DNA of 64,000 bases, from the sequence record PX645697.1, one strand, 5' to 3'. The translations under genes and the position numbers were made by a program. How positions within the stretch are numbered: the first letter of the stretch is position 1; each line of letters opens with the position of its first letter. Shown in pieces: positions 1,406-56,084 of this stretch. Below the pieces are notes generated by a model. It ran no database searches and was not told the DNA's origin. It saw nothing but the letters and a program-made list of their open reading frames with translations. Origin of the DNA: a phage.

Positions 1406-1624
1406 ATGAAAATGATGAAACAAGCTGTATATGGTTTAGTTTGTTTAGGTGCAGGAGTCGTGGTATCTACTGCAATCCCTGTAAGCGCAGTTCATCCATT
1501 AGTTACAGCACCTGCTCCAGTAGAGAAACTTAGTTCTCAATGTAAGCAGCGAACCATTCAAAATAATCTAGTTGTTATTTGTCCTGATGCTGAATCTAAC
1601 GCTCTGAGAAAGATACTACCTTAA
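1406..1624 (+). CDS. small membrane protein, holin candidate (72 aa)
   Basis: Single N-terminal hydrophobic segment (VYGLVCLGAGVVVSTAIPVSA), located immediately upstream of the lysozyme gene; no homology evidence. Confidence 0.3.
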   Translation: MKMMKQAVYGLVCLGAGVVVSTAIPVSAVHPLVTAPAPVEKLSSQCKQRTIQNNLVVICPDAESNALRKILP

Positions 1625-1653
1625 TTTAAAGGGACCGCAAAAGGAGGTTAGAA

Positions 1654-2145
1654 ATGGATAACGCCGCATTGCCACCTGTACAACTAAACTTAAGCCCAGC
1701 TGGAATGGAATTCATCATGAAGCATGAGGGTATGAGAACCAAGGCTTATAAAGATTCCGCAGGTATCTGGACTATATGTGTAGGGGCTACGCGCGATATG
1801 AATGGTTATCCGGTTAGACAAGGATTAACGTATTCTATAGAGGATTGTCTAGCTCTGCTAGATAGAGACACACAAGACTCTGTTCGTGCTACTCAGAAGA
1901 ACATAAAGGTTCCTTTACTAGTTCATGAGTTTGATGCACTCACTTCTTTCAACTTCAATGTTGGCAGTGGGGCTTTGAGCACATCTAAGTTAAGGAAGGT
2001 AATCAATGGAGATGTTAAGGGGGATGTTTATTCCGAATTTCTTCGTTGGGATAAAATAACGGTCAAGGGAGAGAAGCAGAGAAGTCAGGGTCTTCATAAT
2101 AGAAGAGTTGCAGAAGCTAATCTTTACACCGAAGGTAAATATTAA
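1654..2145 (+). CDS. endolysin, GH24 lysozyme (T4/lambda lysozyme family)
   Basis: FIMKHEGMRTKAYKDSAGIWTICVG ... FDALTSFNFNVG ... GLHNRRVAEANLY matches catalytic Glu region and core of phage muramidases; SD AAAGGAGG upstream. Confidence 0.8.
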   Translation: MDNAALPPVQLNLSPAGMEFIMKHEGMRTKAYKDSAGIWTICVGATRDMNGYPVRQGLTYSIEDCLALLDRDTQDSVRATQKNIKVPLLVHEFDALTSFNFNVGSGALSTSKLRKVINGDVKGDVYSEFLRWDKITVKGEKQRSQGLHNRRVAEANLYTEGKY

Positions 2146-5900: not shown

Positions 5901-5988
5901 TTTCTATAATGTTATAGATAATGATGTTAACAGTAATGCTGCTATCAATGGGTTAACGATAGAGTTTGCTGTTGGCGGACGGAGATAA
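2971..5988 (+). CDS. large tail fibre / receptor-binding-type structural protein with repeated bacterial Ig-like (Big_2-like) domains
   Basis: 1005 aa; repeated segments such as WSSNNASIVSVTPNSNSLTAVITANGEGNVTITADNGTKTASCEIV and ITWTSSNPNIATVSGTSTQGTINALLAGFTEITATTEEGNRVAVCTVRV typical of Big_2 repeats. Confidence 0.5.
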   Translation: MALYPIKSLGAVGVIADQAPTDLAPNAFTNAINARFVEQRVFKTGGNAPLSYVDEDKDLTPLSFVSMPFDYYSAGNSFLVVGTDKKLYKLTDESLTDISRKVATVTKKASASIKIYPVVSQIVPKESTISMNFNQTKNLEVSLLPADANNTDLIWEVSNSTYGSVTVDPSDSKLATLTSFEKEGNLVVTISTADDSVVAQIAVNIIDGDSGIFLSQDTVTIRKGGTTTLTAVTGKTPVTWSSNNASIVSVTPNSNSLTAVITANGEGNVTITADNGTKTASCEIVSIPQIDSISLSQSDVTVSRGSQYILTATLSPANAPNQNITWTSSNPNIATVSGTSTQGTINALLAGFTEITATTEEGNRVAVCTVRVDLAGRTMRTSAMAFAAPVSESVETQEEEVVTPTESEETVYFAEPTSGIDTSGMYEGNNFYDYSNVNDIEGFARASLLATPLSSVTLDIVSASLDVGEEIVITATASPEGEYSYQWSVDKTGYVSTTSVTGKSIKLVALRKGEINVTCTVSQMTQKDYDAFDDYPWYHAVISNCAVATTHYETPQVKEFESEYFVDLPGWGEQTVVDNDGNPSVKKFNWKCERVRSFNNRLFALNMREANASGVTTNYPLRLRWSNFANENKAPTLWDDFAYDRVVSSDLASNIVGQTQALENGYAGYIDLADSNGSLIDILPLKDYLFVYTEFETYIGSPTNNTYQPLMFKKLFNDSGILAPECVVEVEGSHFVVTQNDVILHNGATKKSIASNRVKNMLINEVCLVNPLATRVHLHQDKKEVWVLYVGPGEPKESFACTKAAVWNYEFDTWSFRTIPYAQCIGLVDPPVLERGPIWSDFQEITWDDPSIKELVWRKDATNFRQRVTIVGSFLRGFYQVDVGALDYFYDRLNDVVIEKPLEMRLERTGIDFDNVTNEWNQKHINRFRPQTTGSGTYIFEAGGSQFSNEYGHPHTSKTYTIGVDRHVSVRLNHPYLFYNVIDNDVNSNAAINGLTIEFAVGGRR

Positions 5989-6031: not shown

Positions 6032-7000
6032 ATGGGTGCAGGTGGTTTTCGTAAGAACACTGGTCGTAATAACACCACACTCCCGTACAACGTTGGGTTT
6101 CTCAATAATGTACAGGACACAGAAACATATAACGTAGCCGTATATGACGAGCTACAGAAAGTCAGTACAGCTACTAACCAAATGTTCCAAGCTATTGATG
6201 AGATTCATGATGAAATTGATGTTCGTATCAAAGCTCTTCATGCAATGAATCTACAATTTGATGAGCTTGAGAATAGAATTACTACAGAGATAGAGACAGC
6301 TATCGCAGATATTATAACACAGATGGGGAACCTCTCCACTGAAGATATTTGGGATAATTCTGTTCAACCTCCTGTAAAATTAGAAAGCACTGTATCTGGC
6401 TTTAAAACAAGTATTGAAGGTAACACAACTAAGATTCAAACGGTAGAAGGGATTGTTAACGACCAAGGTCAAGAGATTGCTTTAGTTCAGACAGAGATTC
6501 AAAATATTAATGGAAGCCTATCTCAGTATATGAAGCTTTCTGAGTATGAAGCTACTTGGGGTGTTAACTCTACGGTCAACGGAAGATACGCTGGGGTCAA
6601 GTTAACTAACAACGGAACAAACAGTCAATTCCAAGTAACAGCTAACAAGTTTATTGTTGGTGATGGCAGCTCTGGTAATACCCCTTTTGTATTTGAAGGC
6701 GGAAGAGCTAGGATGGAATTCGCTGATATAAAGAACGTCAATATCACAACAGCTCAGATTGCTAACGCTAGAATCCAATGGGCACAGATTGATAACGTAT
6801 CTATCTCCAACGCCCAGATCCAGAACTTATCAGCGGATAAAATCACTGCTGGTTCTATGTGGGGTTCTAACTGGAGACTTACTGTTGGTGGTGATTTTGT
6901 TATGGGTGGTACAGGCGGTTCTCAGTTATGGATGAACGGTAATAGAATAGATTTTTATGATGGGAGTGGAACTCTTCGCATAAGAATAGGGAGTTGGTAA
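6032..7000 (+). CDS. tail fibre-like protein
   Basis: Track ORF 5966..7000 trimmed to ATG at 6032 preceded by GGAGGA; C-terminal ...ITTAQIANARIQWAQIDNVSISNAQIQNLSADKITAGSM... fibre-like repeats. Confidence 0.4.
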   Translation: MGAGGFRKNTGRNNTTLPYNVGFLNNVQDTETYNVAVYDELQKVSTATNQMFQAIDEIHDEIDVRIKALHAMNLQFDELENRITTEIETAIADIITQMGNLSTEDIWDNSVQPPVKLESTVSGFKTSIEGNTTKIQTVEGIVNDQGQEIALVQTEIQNINGSLSQYMKLSEYEATWGVNSTVNGRYAGVKLTNNGTNSQFQVTANKFIVGDGSSGNTPFVFEGGRARMEFADIKNVNITTAQIANARIQWAQIDNVSISNAQIQNLSADKITAGSMWGSNWRLTVGGDFVMGGTGGSQLWMNGNRIDFYDGSGTLRIRIGSW

Positions 7001-7001
7001 C

Positions 7002-8036
7002 ATGGCATATGGAATATGGACAAGCCCGGTCGGTCCGGGTCCAGCGGCACCTGCTGACATTTACATTGACAGTGGTAGCACTTTCCCTCAACTCAGAAAT
7101 AGAGTCAGTGGGAATTTCTCTTTTAGCGGAAATACCTGTGACTTGCCTATAAGCGGTTGGGATGGTAGCGGTCAGATAGTTGTAGTCCCAACAGGGTCTG
7201 TTGTTTGGGAGAGATACATACCTCCTAATGTAACATCTGATGTGTATTGGCTAACGGATATATCTGTTATTAATAACTCAACCTTCAGAGTTACTATGGA
7301 CTATAACGTAAACGGTTGGGTATTTGATATGGCTTTTAATGTATATCAAATATGGCCTAGAGCTAATAGGAACTATGGAATCACATTCTCCAACTCTGCT
7401 GACTATTTCTCAATCTCTGATTCTGGAGTTGTTGGTCAATGTATTTGGGCTTGGGAAGGTGACATAAATGGCTCTCTTCAAATACCAGATATTGGAGGTT
7501 TTGATATGAGTCGAGCAACTGTCTATGCAAATTGGAGTAACGGCGGAGCAGGGCTACTATACAACCCATCTAATAGGGTTGTTTATGTGTACCAGAACAG
7601 ATCTCATGATAATGGTAACACAAATCAAACAGGGTACATTGGTGGTGTTAGGATTGCCGTATTCTGTGATGGTTCGGGAGTACCAACCCACAATGGAGGT
7701 TTAAATATCTTTTCTCCAAATGGGTCTCAGTGTGTTTTTTCTACATATAGAACCCCTTTTAGTGTTGAGGGATTTATGCCTATGAGTGGTGGTAACACAT
7801 CTTTGGCCTATCCAATGATACCTCTATCTTATGGTGCTGGAGCAATAAGAGGTAAGGCTAGTGGTTGGTATTTTCAACACACAAGATCTCACATGATGAA
7901 TGGCTCTTCTTTTGGTACAGGTTTCGGAAGGATGATTTACTCTTGGAGTAGTCAATATGATTTAGGAGGGGGTGGTGCCCTCGGGTTAAGTATTCCAATA
8001 TTAGATGCTAGAAAGATATTCAGGAGTATACAATAA
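7002..8036 (+). CDS. hypothetical structural protein
   Basis: Track ORF, tightly packed in structural operon; Gly/Ser/Asn-rich. Confidence 0.4.
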   Translation: MAYGIWTSPVGPGPAAPADIYIDSGSTFPQLRNRVSGNFSFSGNTCDLPISGWDGSGQIVVVPTGSVVWERYIPPNVTSDVYWLTDISVINNSTFRVTMDYNVNGWVFDMAFNVYQIWPRANRNYGITFSNSADYFSISDSGVVGQCIWAWEGDINGSLQIPDIGGFDMSRATVYANWSNGGAGLLYNPSNRVVYVYQNRSHDNGNTNQTGYIGGVRIAVFCDGSGVPTHNGGLNIFSPNGSQCVFSTYRTPFSVEGFMPMSGGNTSLAYPMIPLSYGAGAIRGKASGWYFQHTRSHMMNGSSFGTGFGRMIYSWSSQYDLGGGGALGLSIPILDARKIFRSIQ

Positions 8037-51475: not shown

Positions 51476-51721
51476 CTACTCCTGAACCACAGACATACGA
51501 ATCATTTCCACCGGAGTGTCACCCTTCATAACACCCAGCACACCAGTCAGTAGGTTAACTGTAGTAATCCAACCCTCTTCTACAGAGATCTTGTTGGACA
51601 CATTATTAACACGCATGTAATACTGAGGTGATGCTGTACCCCGCTGAACTACGAAAGGGTTTCCGGGGATGATAGTATCCAGCGGATGTGTGTTATCTTT
51701 GACCTTGGGGATAATTTTCAT
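51476..51721 (-). CDS. small protein, possible family member
   Basis: Track ORF. Confidence 0.35.
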   Translation of the reverse strand: MKIIPKVKDNTHPLDTIIPGNPFVVQRGTASPQYYMRVNNVSNKISVEEGWITTVNLLTGVLGVMKGDTPVEMIRMSVVQE

Positions 51722-52593: not shown

Positions 52594-52767
52594 TTAGCAA
52601 GACTCATCACAAGGTTGATCACCACATGTTTTACAAATCACGGGTGAATAACTACAGGCAGGATACACTGACACACCATCAAACGTCTCACACCCACAAT
52701 CAGGGCATGTACCGTTGGATTCCATGTCATCATCATCATATACTTCACCGCCACCATAACAGCTCAT
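52594..52767 (-). CDS. small Cys-rich zinc-ribbon protein, 57 aa (not in track)
   Basis: Hand translation MSCYGGGEVYDDDDMESNGTCPDCGCETFDGVSVYPACSYSPVICKTCGDQPCDESC; AAGGAG 6 nt upstream. Confidence 0.45.
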   Translation of the reverse strand: MSCYGGGEVYDDDDMESNGTCPDCGCETFDGVSVYPACSYSPVICKTCGDQPCDESC

Positions 52768-52776
52768 ATGAACTCC

Positions 52777-52998
52777 TTAGTAAACTAAACCTATAGCCTT
52801 TGCATCAGGCTGAGGGACTACTTTTGCACTAGGGCGATAGCCATCCACTGAGCCATTCCAAAGATTGACACAGGTGATATACCCATCGTTCAAGTAGTCT
52901 GTTTTAATCCAGAAGTGTTTATCGTGACCAAAAATACTTCCGTTTGGCAGTGTGGACAGTTCAACAGTTTTAAGTGACTGCTTAGAGTCTAGTTTCAT
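52777..52998 (-). CDS. small protein, early-region paralog family
   Basis: ...STLPNGSIFGHDKHFWIKTD... Confidence 0.4.
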   Translation of the reverse strand: MKLDSKQSLKTVELSTLPNGSIFGHDKHFWIKTDYLNDGYITCVNLWNGSVDGYRPSAKVVPQPDAKAIGLVY

Positions 52999-53255: not shown

Positions 53256-53543
53256 TTACCACTCCTTACCGGTTGTTGTTACAGAACCACCACACCACTG
53301 CGCATCGGATAAGGTTTTAGTCTCCTCATCTACTGCTGCACCATTCAGGCATGAGATACCACTGTAACGCATATCAATTTCACCAGAAGGAACCTTCTCG
53401 CCCTTATGCCAGCGAGATACGCAAACACCTTCCACTGCTACTGCACACCATCCATCAGGACGGCTCTGTACGCAGCCTGTAAGGGCTATGCAGACGATGA
53501 AGATACAGATTAAGGATATTACACCACCCCAACTCATAACCAC
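53256..53543 (-). CDS. lipoprotein candidate
   Basis: Signal-like N-terminus ending in lipobox ALTGC. Confidence 0.4.
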   Translation of the reverse strand: MVMSWGGVISLICIFIVCIALTGCVQSRPDGWCAVAVEGVCVSRWHKGEKVPSGEIDMRYSGISCLNGAAVDEETKTLSDAQWCGGSVTTTGKEW

Positions 53544-53642
53544 CTCTCATTCAATTTGGCGCACCGTGGAGGATTCTAACCTCCAACCAATTTCTTAGAA
53601 GGAAACTGCTCTATACAATTGAGCTAACGGCGCTGGATTTGT

Positions 53643-53957
53643 TTACAAGGAGAAGGACTTCTTGCAATCTTTCTCTTCAAAAGTGTAGTAGCCCGTTGCA
53701 TCAGGGAAGTAGGCATACTTTATTTCTTTGCCATCTACAGCCATGATACGATTACCAGAGGTCGTTTCAACAAACAGAAGCCCATCTCTTACCATACCGT
53801 GAGCTTCTTTAATATCAGTTAAGCTGTGTTCTTTAAGGACACATTGCTGGACACTCTGATACTTAACCCCAATCTCTGCACTGTTAACAGAGACAATACC
53901 AATGGTTGTCATCAGCATCAAGGTTGATATGATAAAATGCTTCTGCTTCACGTTCAC
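53643..53957 (-). CDS. secreted/periplasmic protein candidate
   Basis: N-terminal signal-like segment FIISTLMLMTTIGIVSVNSA. Confidence 0.4.
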   Translation of the reverse strand: MNVKQKHFIISTLMLMTTIGIVSVNSAEIGVKYQSVQQCVLKEHSLTDIKEAHGMVRDGLLFVETTSGNRIMAVDGKEIKYAYFPDATGYYTFEEKDCKKSFSL

Positions 53958-53964
53958 CTCTTAT

Positions 53965-54174
53965 TTAACTGAAAATATGCAAGGCCACATCATGACCGAT
54001 ATGACCGGGAACTTTATGCTGTTCTATTTTCAAACAGAGTTTACAGACACGAGATACACGAGACTCTTTCGCTTCAACTGGAGTGTCTGTAGCGTGAGTG
54101 ATATGTAGGTTTTCAGTGATCACCCACTCGTGTTTACATCCAGAATCTTCGGGCTTTTTCTTACGAAAGAACAT
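53965..54174 (-). CDS. hypothetical small protein
   Basis: Track ORF. Confidence 0.3.
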   Translation of the reverse strand: MFFRKKKPEDSGCKHEWVITENLHITHATDTPVEAKESRVSRVCKLCLKIEQHKVPGHIGHDVALHIFS

Positions 54175-54182
54175 AACACCCC

Positions 54183-54344
54183 TTAGATTATGTCACGATG
54201 ACTAACTTCACCACACACCTTACACTGGATAATGTAACGTGTGCCCTTGTCATTGTTTCCATCTGAATCTGTATAGACCAGAGGGCGAGTATTAATAATC
54301 TTCCAATCATGACAATGAAAGACACGCTTTAGCCACTTGAACAT
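54183..54344 (-). CDS. small zinc-ribbon protein
   Basis: Track ORF trimmed to ATG 54344; HCHDW...CKVCG. Confidence 0.3.
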   Translation of the reverse strand: MFKWLKRVFHCHDWKIINTRPLVYTDSDGNNDKGTRYIIQCKVCGEVSHRDII

Positions 54345-54351
54345 ATTAACC

Positions 54352-54603
54352 TCAAGCACAAGCAGGGAGAGTGATGATTTTATACTTGCCTTCAAACTCT
54401 CCAAATAAACCCAAGAATGTAGGACTGTAAGTACCAGTACAAACAAACTCATCAAACAGTGCGTTATAGCTAGGCTTAATCTTCCAAGCCCATACATAAC
54501 CCATCTTGTCAATTGCAATGTAACGAGTGTTCAGAGGAACAGTCATCATCACATCATCAACTTCGATCACTTTAGTGATTGGTGCAGCTTGGAAGTTTTT
54601 CAT
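54352..54603 (-). CDS. hypothetical protein
   Basis: Track ORF; start overlaps stop of upstream small gene. Confidence 0.4.
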   Translation of the reverse strand: MKNFQAAPITKVIEVDDVMMTVPLNTRYIAIDKMGYVWAWKIKPSYNALFDEFVCTGTYSPTFLGLFGEFEGKYKIITLPACA

Positions 54604-54776
54604 ACTTTACCTTTAATAAAAATGTCATTACCACAGACACAGCATGAACGAACAACAGTAGCGCCACGCTGAACGATGCGAACCTCTTCTTTAACCAGAT
54701 TGACACGAGCACCACAGCAAGGAGAGTTGACATAAGAGTAACCGGCTTGTGTATTCTTGATTGTTTGCTTAGACAT
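54600..54776 (-). CDS. small zinc-ribbon protein, 58 aa (not in track)
   Basis: Hand translation MSKQTIKNTQAGYSYVNSPCCGARVNLVKEEVRIVQRGATVVRSCCVCGNDIFIKGKV; stop TGA overlaps next ATG. Confidence 0.45.
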   Translation of the reverse strand: MSKQTIKNTQAGYSYVNSPCCGARVNLVKEEVRIVQRGATVVRSCCVCGNDIFIKGKV

Positions 54777-55357: not shown

Positions 55358-55576
55358 TTACTTTTGAGTCACATGAAGATCAGGGCGAGGTGTAACAGTG
55401 GTGCCACCCTTAAAAAGACCAACATAACCAGTACGAAGATTGGCTGCTTTATGTGAACCATTATTTGCTACCTCTTCAAGCAGCAACCAGAACCGGCTAT
55501 CATAAAAGAAAACCGACCCACTTTCTAGATCACATATTTTTGAAAACTTAAGAGGTTTACCTTCATTGATTTCCAT
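55358..55576 (-). CDS. small protein, early-region paralog family
   Basis: ...ICDLESGSVFFYDSRFWLLLEE... Confidence 0.4.
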   Translation of the reverse strand: MEINEGKPLKFSKICDLESGSVFFYDSRFWLLLEEVANNGSHKAANLRTGYVGLFKGGTTVTPRPDLHVTQK

Positions 55577-55834
55577 TTACTTACCTTTATTAGTAATAAC
55601 AACATCATGAAGCACAACAGCAGGGAGGTTGGAGTTGAGTTTCATAACCTGATTGGTATTTAAACTCAGAACCGTGCACCCTTCATCGCGAGGCTTAGTC
55701 TCTGTCACATGTGGTGTGAAGAGTTGTACAATCATGTAATAATCGATACATGTTGACTTTACTTGGAACACATCACCAAGTTTCAAATCACCTACACACA
55801 ACTTATTAACCTTAGGATTAAGATCAATCTTCAT
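55577..55834 (-). CDS. small protein, early-region paralog family
   Basis: ...VGDLKLGDVFQVKSTCIDYYMIV... Confidence 0.4.
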   Translation of the reverse strand: MKIDLNPKVNKLCVGDLKLGDVFQVKSTCIDYYMIVQLFTPHVTETKPRDEGCTVLSLNTNQVMKLNSNLPAVVLHDVVITNKGK

Positions 55835-56084
55835 CTTTAGCCTCGATGTTAGTTATGTGGAGATCGTTGCGCACTTGGCAGACTTCATCACGATTAATAG
55901 GGATGAGTTTTCCAGTGACTACATCAACGCAGTTCACATAATTATCTGCATATAAAGAATCGGTTCGAATATAAAGGAACCCTTTAGACTCAAAGAGAAC
56001 CCCCGGCTTCATGTTATTTAAGCGAAGCATTGTACGGTTAGGTTTAATATTAACCTTCACTGTTAATCTCCTGCTGCTTAGCAA
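55824..56084 (-). CDS. small protein, early-region paralog family
   Basis: ...LNNMKPGVLFESKGFLYIRTD... Confidence 0.4.
   Translation of the reverse strand: MLSSRRLTVKVNIKPNRTMLRLNNMKPGVLFESKGFLYIRTDSLYADNYVNCVDVVTGKLIPINRDEVCQVRNDLHITNIEAKDED

Follow-up and report, generated by a model that had tools for sequence, protein, structure and literature searches.

A predicted Rtp45-type exclusion lipoprotein and an accessory exported protein candidate in the small-gene cluster of a phiEco32-like podophage

The stretch of DNA analyzed here, referred to as the window, comprises 64,000 nucleotides (PX645697.1) and was identified as that of a phiEco32-like podophage (Kuravirus, Gordonclarkvirinae). 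When the region of interest and the surrounding 24 kb were compared by megablast, approximately 100-130 Escherichia phages of the phiEco32 group were matched at about 85-96% identity, none of them identical. Two small genes, ORF1 and ORF2, flank a tRNA-Arg gene (anticodon TCT; 53557..53633, minus strand) within the small-gene cluster of the right arm, which is transcribed leftwards. Both proved to be real and lie on the minus strand at the positions proposed by an earlier, sequence-only reading of this DNA, with their likely starts moved to ATG 53537 (ORF1) and GTG 53951 (ORF2). The corresponding leftward cluster of phiEco32 belongs to the early, host-takeover class (PMC8948821), and since ORF1 is located within this cluster, it is by analogy presumably expressed early as well. 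A scan for sigma-70 promoters around the genes returned 18 candidates, against 14.8 expected from shuffled sequence, and was thus not above expectation.

Patterns were also observed among other small open reading frames on the minus strand. Five of these (51476..51721, 52777..52998, 55358..55576, 55577..55834 and 55824..56084), encoding 72-86 aa, share the weak common pattern L..G..F ... VNL.TG at a mutual identity of 18-28% and with no match in Pfam; they may constitute a paralogous early-gene family. Four others (52594..52767, 53965..54174, 54183..54518 and 54600..54776) encode cysteine-rich products with paired CxxC-like motifs, which may be zinc-ribbon-like. A Pfam scan of 52594..52767, 53965..54174 and 54600..54776 gave no match, and phi32_107 of phiEco32 corresponds to the C-terminal part of 54183..54518.

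ORF1 (53256..53537, minus strand) encodes a predicted prolipoprotein of 93 aa. Its start is likely ATG 53537, which is preceded at a distance of 5 nt by a GAGG Shine-Dalgarno core, and not GTG 53543; the phiEco32 orthologue, phi32_106, also has 93 aa and is annotated 'putative phage lipoprotein'. The protein begins with MSWGGVISLICIFIVCIALTGC, followed by VQSRPDGWC. Residues 1-21 (53475..53537, minus strand) form a predicted signal peptide with a hydrophobic core of 14 residues (maximum Kyte-Doolittle value 3.76, 9-residue average), which leads into the lipobox L-T-G-C with Cys22 (codon 53472..53474, minus strand) as the predicted lipidation site. Because Gly21 and Cys22 are invariant across 10 database homologues as well as Rtp45 and SEOeko, the lipobox is not a chance match, and the signal-like N-terminus with lipobox that the sequence-only reading had ascribed to ORF1 is confirmed. 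The first seven residues contain neither Lys nor Arg, and in this the protein departs from the side rule of PROSITE PS51257. The predicted mature protein would consist of 72 aa with four cysteines in addition to Cys22 (Cys31, Cys39, Cys63 and Cys82), and carries Val and not Asp at position +2, which is consistent with sorting to the outer membrane.

The assignment of ORF1 to a family is clear from sequence comparison. The protein matches the Pfam family PF24052 ('Phage_lipoprotein') over the entire profile (positions 1-80 of 80) with 124.7 bits and an E-value of 1.4e-36, far above the gathering cut-off of 27 bits and in the range of the known members Rtp45 (128 bits) and SEOeko (76 bits), with which it also shares phrog_4281. 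In a phmmer search of all PDB sequences, the sole significant match was chain D of 9RPS, which is Rtp45 (E 7.9e-16, aa 6-74), and SEOeko could be aligned end to end by BLASTP with 33% identity (E 8e-16). In a core region, aa 26-61, 22 of 36 residues (61%) are identical to Rtp45. Residues invariant in the family are, in ORF1 numbering, G21, C22, R26, G29, C31, G37, C39, G46, V49, G52, D55, R57, G60, E92 and W93, the last two belonging to a C-terminal (K/R)EW motif that ORF1 has in common with SEOeko and Rtp45. The cysteines C31 and C39, found in all eight aligned sequences, correspond to the disulfide Cys30-Cys38 of Rtp45 (PMC12685063). ORF1 thus represents a new member of the known Rtp45/PF24052 family of exclusion lipoproteins.

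Rtp45 is the superinfection-exclusion lipoprotein of the siphophage Rtp, and its structure in complex with the LPS translocon LptDE has been determined by cryo-EM (PMC12685063). It is positioned at the periplasmic interface of the outer membrane, where residues 30-35 pair with a strand of LptD, and a hairpin that reaches up the LptD lumen displaces extracellular loop 4, by as much as 20 Å, as a result of which the phage receptor-binding protein cannot bind (PMC12685063). The expected target of the ORF1 protein is therefore LptDE and not FhuA; conservation of the residues in contact with LptD was judged at the level of the segment. An AlphaFold2 model of the ORF1 protein was of low confidence (pLDDT 47), as was that of the ORF2 protein (all-beta, pLDDT 48), and both were too poor for fold searches. 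Poor structure predictions for the Rtp45 family have also been reported by the authors of the Rtp45 study (PMC12685063). AF3 placed Rtp45 wrongly.

A role of ORF1 as a spanin, of either the o-spanin or the u-spanin type, was considered and rejected. The sequence after the signal contains no strongly hydrophobic segment (best 9-residue average 2.11, aa 32-40), the gene is situated in the early cluster and distant from the holin and lysis genes, which in phiEco32 and SU10 adjoin the tail genes, and the homologue Rtp45 is an exclusion protein.

ORF2 (53643..53951, minus strand) occupies a slot of variable content (53634..53964) that is marked by the tRNA-Arg gene. The slot holds ORF2 in the window and a homing endonuclease in Bas91; in phiEco32, neither ORF2 nor the 69-aa open reading frame 53965..54174 is present. 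The sequence-only reading had described a classical signal-like N-terminus for this gene. Signal-like features are present, but the start from which they had been read, GTG 53957, falls inside the Shine-Dalgarno sequence AAGAGGTGA and has to be replaced by GTG 53951, which is the most likely start. From this codon, the 102-aa product begins with MKQKHFIISTLMLMTTIGIVSVNSAEIG, comprising a charged n-region (MKQKH), a hydrophobic h-region (FIISTLMLMTTIGIV; maximum Kyte-Doolittle value 2.41, 9-residue average) and the sequence SVNSA, with small residues at the candidate cleavage sites IVS/V and VNS/A. This organization resembles a Sec-type signal. The products of both ORF1 and ORF2 are predicted to be exported; for ORF2, a signal-anchor topology, in which the protein possibly stays attached to the membrane, is also conceivable.

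All deposited GenBank annotations and the profile of phrog_23590 start the homologues of ORF2 13 codons downstream, at Met14 of the 102-aa form, which yields 89 aa and removes the signal. If they are right, ORF2 would encode a cytoplasmic protein initiated at an internal ATG. We consider this improbable, since the internal ATG is not preceded by a Shine-Dalgarno sequence, whereas the GTG start and a GAGGT 5 nt ahead of it are conserved in four phages (the window, ECBP2, pEC-N1203-2Af.1 and PE006) despite differing sequence further upstream. Moreover, codons 2-13 display a pS of 0.72 and a pN of only 0.05-0.09 in the comparison of the window with each of the three other copies, which argues that the N-terminal extension is translated, and gene prediction carried out independently on metagenome assemblies also yields 102 aa. 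The gene as a whole, with a pN/pS of about 0.15, is under purifying selection. The start codon of the ORF2 family is hereby corrected to that of the 102-aa form. The homologues of ORF2 in the compared phage loci at 1501..1809 were likewise annotated 13 codons short.

The distribution of ORF2 is narrow. It was found in only 12 phage records, and all those examined were Gordonclarkvirinae, including the Suseptimavirus ECBP2; no credible match was obtained in Pfam, NCBIfam, PADLOC or the PDB sequences. When 1.84 billion representative proteins were searched exhaustively with HMMER, only one protein was retrieved apart from the cluster of ORF2 itself. This lone outside match, a protein of 1986 aa in which a tyrosine-phosphatase domain comes after fibronectin type III repeats, owes its score to summed weak matches to near-identical repeats and was dismissed as spurious. 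The predicted mature domain of ORF2 comprises approximately 77-81 aa, is beta-rich and contains two cysteines (Cys37 and Cys96), compatible with a single disulfide formed in the periplasm. We infer that ORF2 encodes a small, Sec-exported, periplasmic, disulfide-bonded and beta-rich accessory protein. The gene is an accessory, moron-like occupant of the variable slot. None of the results connects its product with exclusion, and to ascribe to it this or another role directed at the envelope would be a guess.

In Rtp and Oekolampad the exclusion gene is located immediately upstream of the gene for the receptor-binding protein (Rtp44 and RBPOeko; DUF6453), beside a J-like gene, and the window was therefore searched for Rtp44. 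A full-length homologue was detected by tblastn (E 7.7e-15) at 7002..8036 on the plus strand, equivalent to gp19 of SU10 and gp21 of phiEco32 and referred to below as gp19. The protein matches DUF6453 (E 8.5e-25; 88 bits at a cut-off of 25), shares phrog_1265 with Rtp44, aligns end to end with both Rtp44 and RBPOeko, and in a phmmer search matched over aa 55-334 the PDB entries 9RPT, 9RPW and 9RQI, in which RBPOeko is named 'Tail fiber protein' (E 2.8e-9). It is the putative cognate receptor-binding protein of the ORF1 lipoprotein. Its identity to the proven LptD binders is only 21-24%, however, and its specificity for LptD could have drifted.

The gene for gp19 directly follows that of the tail needle (6032..7000, plus strand; 322 aa; gp18 of SU10 and gp20 of phiEco32) in the late tail operon, and is itself followed by a gene annotated in SU10 as a transglycosylase ejection protein. 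The maximal open reading frame of the needle begins at 5966, and its start in phrog_16534 and in the annotated orthologues is at 6032. A Phage_Tail_Tip domain is present in the needle, which can be aligned over about 220-305 residues with the J-like tail tip proteins of T1, Rtp and Oekolampad, in their C-terminal part. The window consequently encodes a homologue of each component of the LptD module known from siphophages, namely the J-like tip, the DUF6453 receptor-binding protein and the exclusion lipoprotein.

The presence of gp19 in the virion is unproven, since virion proteomics of SU10 detected gp16, 17, 18 and 20-24 and missed gp19 (PMC4281155), and the paper on the cryo-EM structure of SU10 does not mention gp19 anywhere. 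In phrog_1265 and in the RefSeq records of Kuravirus orthologues (e.g. NC_010324, 20445..21473), the protein carries the label 'membrane protein' (moron/host-takeover category). This label is probably wrong, because the DUF6453 member of known structure serves a phage as receptor-binding protein, with LptD as its receptor.

To describe the distribution of the lipoprotein and gp19, we used as a reference count the approximately 99 records with a full-length homologue of the Gordonclarkvirinae-type nozzle at 60% identity or more. At the same threshold, the lipoprotein was present in 98 records and gp19 in 92, in addition to divergent copies of gp19 such as that of ECBP2 (44.5%), and from these overall record counts both look like core genes of the Gordonclarkvirinae. 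Beyond this subfamily, the two proteins match the same small siphophages: Rtp-like phages, Dhillonvirus, T1-like phages of Klebsiella, and Nonagvirus. Salmonella phage 7-11, a distant phiEco32-like outgroup, encodes a nozzle homologue (E 2.6e-67), and the needle, gp19 and the lipoprotein are all absent from it, which fits with these three forming one module. A search for co-variation between the lipoprotein and gp19 types of Kuraviruses found none; compared with the window, EK5 has a gp19 of 99% and a lipoprotein of 72% identity, and CHD5UKE1 a gp19 of 61% and a lipoprotein of 97%. This result is compatible with two proteins that touch opposite faces of LptD but lends no positive support.

The best explanation for the locus, which on the strength of these comparisons we regard as reasonably probable, is that ORF1 encodes an LptDE-binding exclusion lipoprotein of the Rtp45 type in a Kuravirus that itself uses LptD, and that ORF2 contributes an accessory exported protein. 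The ORF1 lipoprotein would bind the periplasmic face of LptDE in the manner of Rtp45, with the conserved disulfide-clamped segment (Cys31-Cys39) pairing with a strand of LptD. Extracellular loop 4 would be displaced by a beta-hairpin rising through the LptD lumen, so that receptor-binding proteins of the LptD type would be unable to dock. If Kuravirus phages use LptD at the step of needle contact or at the irreversible step, the lipoprotein would shield the infected cell from superinfection, and progeny would not be wasted on membrane debris. Use of LptD by Kuravirus appears to be the most economical reading, because a homologue of the DUF6453 receptor-binding protein is encoded in this genome directly after a J-like needle. 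Among open-access papers, none was found that connects LptD or an exclusion lipoprotein with Kuravirus, phiEco32 or SU10. The more detailed proposal, that gp19 is seated on the J-like needle and binds LptD, with the early ORF1 lipoprotein as its cognate exclusion factor, is offered tentatively, as having slightly less than an even chance of being correct. If true, it would imply that the LptD module of siphophages crossed morphotypes and that its genes came to be distributed over late and early transcription units. A second, new periplasmic factor might be encoded in the same region by ORF2.

Other roles for the lipoprotein need to be weighed against this explanation. The lipoprotein might bind LptDE and shut out only competing, LptD-dependent siphophages (Rtp-like, Dhillonvirus, Nonagvirus), in which case Kuravirus would not use LptD and gp19 would be employed otherwise, for example in needle assembly or in binding a different ligand. 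This would agree with the failure to find gp19 in SU10 virions when its neighbours were all detected, with the separation of the exclusion gene from gp19 together with the missing co-variation of their variants, and with published models of Kuravirus host recognition, which invoke O-antigen and short tail fibres and name no protein receptor (PMC11990801). The characterized cases considered here, however, Llp with T5 and Rtp45 with Rtp, mask the receptor of their own phage, the full-length DUF6453 homologue stands directly after the J-like needle in the late tail operon, and both genes occur in nearly all records of the Gordonclarkvirinae type and are both missing from phage 7-11. On balance, we regard exclusion of competitors alone as unlikely, though worth keeping in view.

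Distinctly improbable, in our judgment, is a function of the lipoprotein as a host-takeover factor that alters LptDE early in infection, affecting LPS/O-antigen export or outer-membrane integrity, with exclusion as an incidental effect. Its position within the early host-takeover cluster would agree with such a function, as would the entry of the Rtp45 hairpin into the LptD lumen, and in Kuraviruses, which depend on O-antigen, a block of LPS export could change the display of the receptor. The conserved pairing with a receptor-binding protein homologue is nevertheless better explained by receptor masking, and no report of an effect of Rtp45 on LPS transport was found in the Rtp45 paper (PMC12685063). 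That the protein blocks FhuA in the way of Llp and Cor is suggested by generic features only, those of a small phage lipoprotein with a lipobox. By BLASTP, ORF1 gave no alignment with T5 Llp and an E-value of 2.3 with T1 Cor; Cor and Llp belong to phrog_1119, whereas ORF1 matches phrog_4281 only; and against PF24052, Cor falls under the cut-off and Llp obtains no score. Membership of that family is thereby refuted and blocking of FhuA is highly improbable. The suggestion of the sequence-only reading, that such envelope-targeted proteins are often exclusion or receptor-masking factors as with T5 Llp, is partly supported. For ORF1, the functional class is strongly supported through the homology to Rtp45, but Llp is the wrong analogue in both family and target; for ORF2, the support extends to the signal-like N-terminus, given the corrected start codon.

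With these results, a gene that in about 100 genomes bears the label 'hypothetical' or 'putative lipoprotein' gains a likely role, and gp19, at present a 'membrane protein', is flagged as a candidate receptor-binding protein. Kuravirus-type phages are frequent isolates in the search for therapy candidates against pathogenic E. coli, and a specific hypothesis is now available for their terminal receptor. Since LptD is both essential and conserved, LptD-using phages are of interest in phage steering. The lptD loop mutants and the phages Bas86-94 described in the BASEL papers would be suitable for testing whether Kuravirus uses LptD.

Among known systems, Llp of T5 and Cor of T1, phi80 and N15 resemble the ORF1 protein as small outer-membrane phage lipoproteins that mask the receptor of their own phage from the periplasmic side, and llp, too, is expressed early. 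They differ in their target, FhuA, and in an allosteric mechanism, where Rtp45 displaces the LptD loop sterically; their genes adjoin that of the receptor-binding protein, and their sequences have no detectable relation to ORF1. The closer parallel is with Rtp45 and SEOeko (gp26 of Oekolampad), which have the Pfam family, the PHROG and an equivalent position of the lipobox cysteine in common with ORF1. With Rtp45, the disulfide pair is kept (C31/C39 in ORF1, C30/C38 in Rtp45) and the hairpin-forming core is 61% identical, and the genomes of Rtp and Oekolampad likewise combine the lipoprotein with a DUF6453 receptor-binding protein and a J-like tip protein. Differences are found at several levels. 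Rtp is a siphophage, whereas ORF1 belongs to a podophage with a tail needle, and here 46 kb (53.5 versus 7.0 kb) separate the lipoprotein gene, a member of the early small-gene cluster, from the receptor-binding protein homologue. The 76 aa of Rtp45 compare with 93-108 aa in the Gordonclarkvirinae proteins, owing to an insertion of variable length that in the Kuravirus proteins carries a second pair of cysteines (C63 and C82 in ORF1). Finally, the n-region of ORF1 is uncharged, and its binding to LptDE is a prediction. In the BASEL collection, a locus of this type for the receptor-binding protein predicts LptD as receptor 'without exception' among small siphophages, with experimental tests of LptD for Bas01, 02, 14, 18, 19, 20 and 25 (PMC8594841). 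The proteins of the FhuA-type locus of T1 lack DUF6453. The receptor is established for the siphophages tested, whereas use of LptD by Kuravirus is putative, and in the window the J-like part is reduced to a needle of 322 aa and the genes of the module are divided between late and early regions; all three components of the LptD-type locus, however, have their homologues in the window, at 6032..7000, 7002..8036 and 53256..53537.
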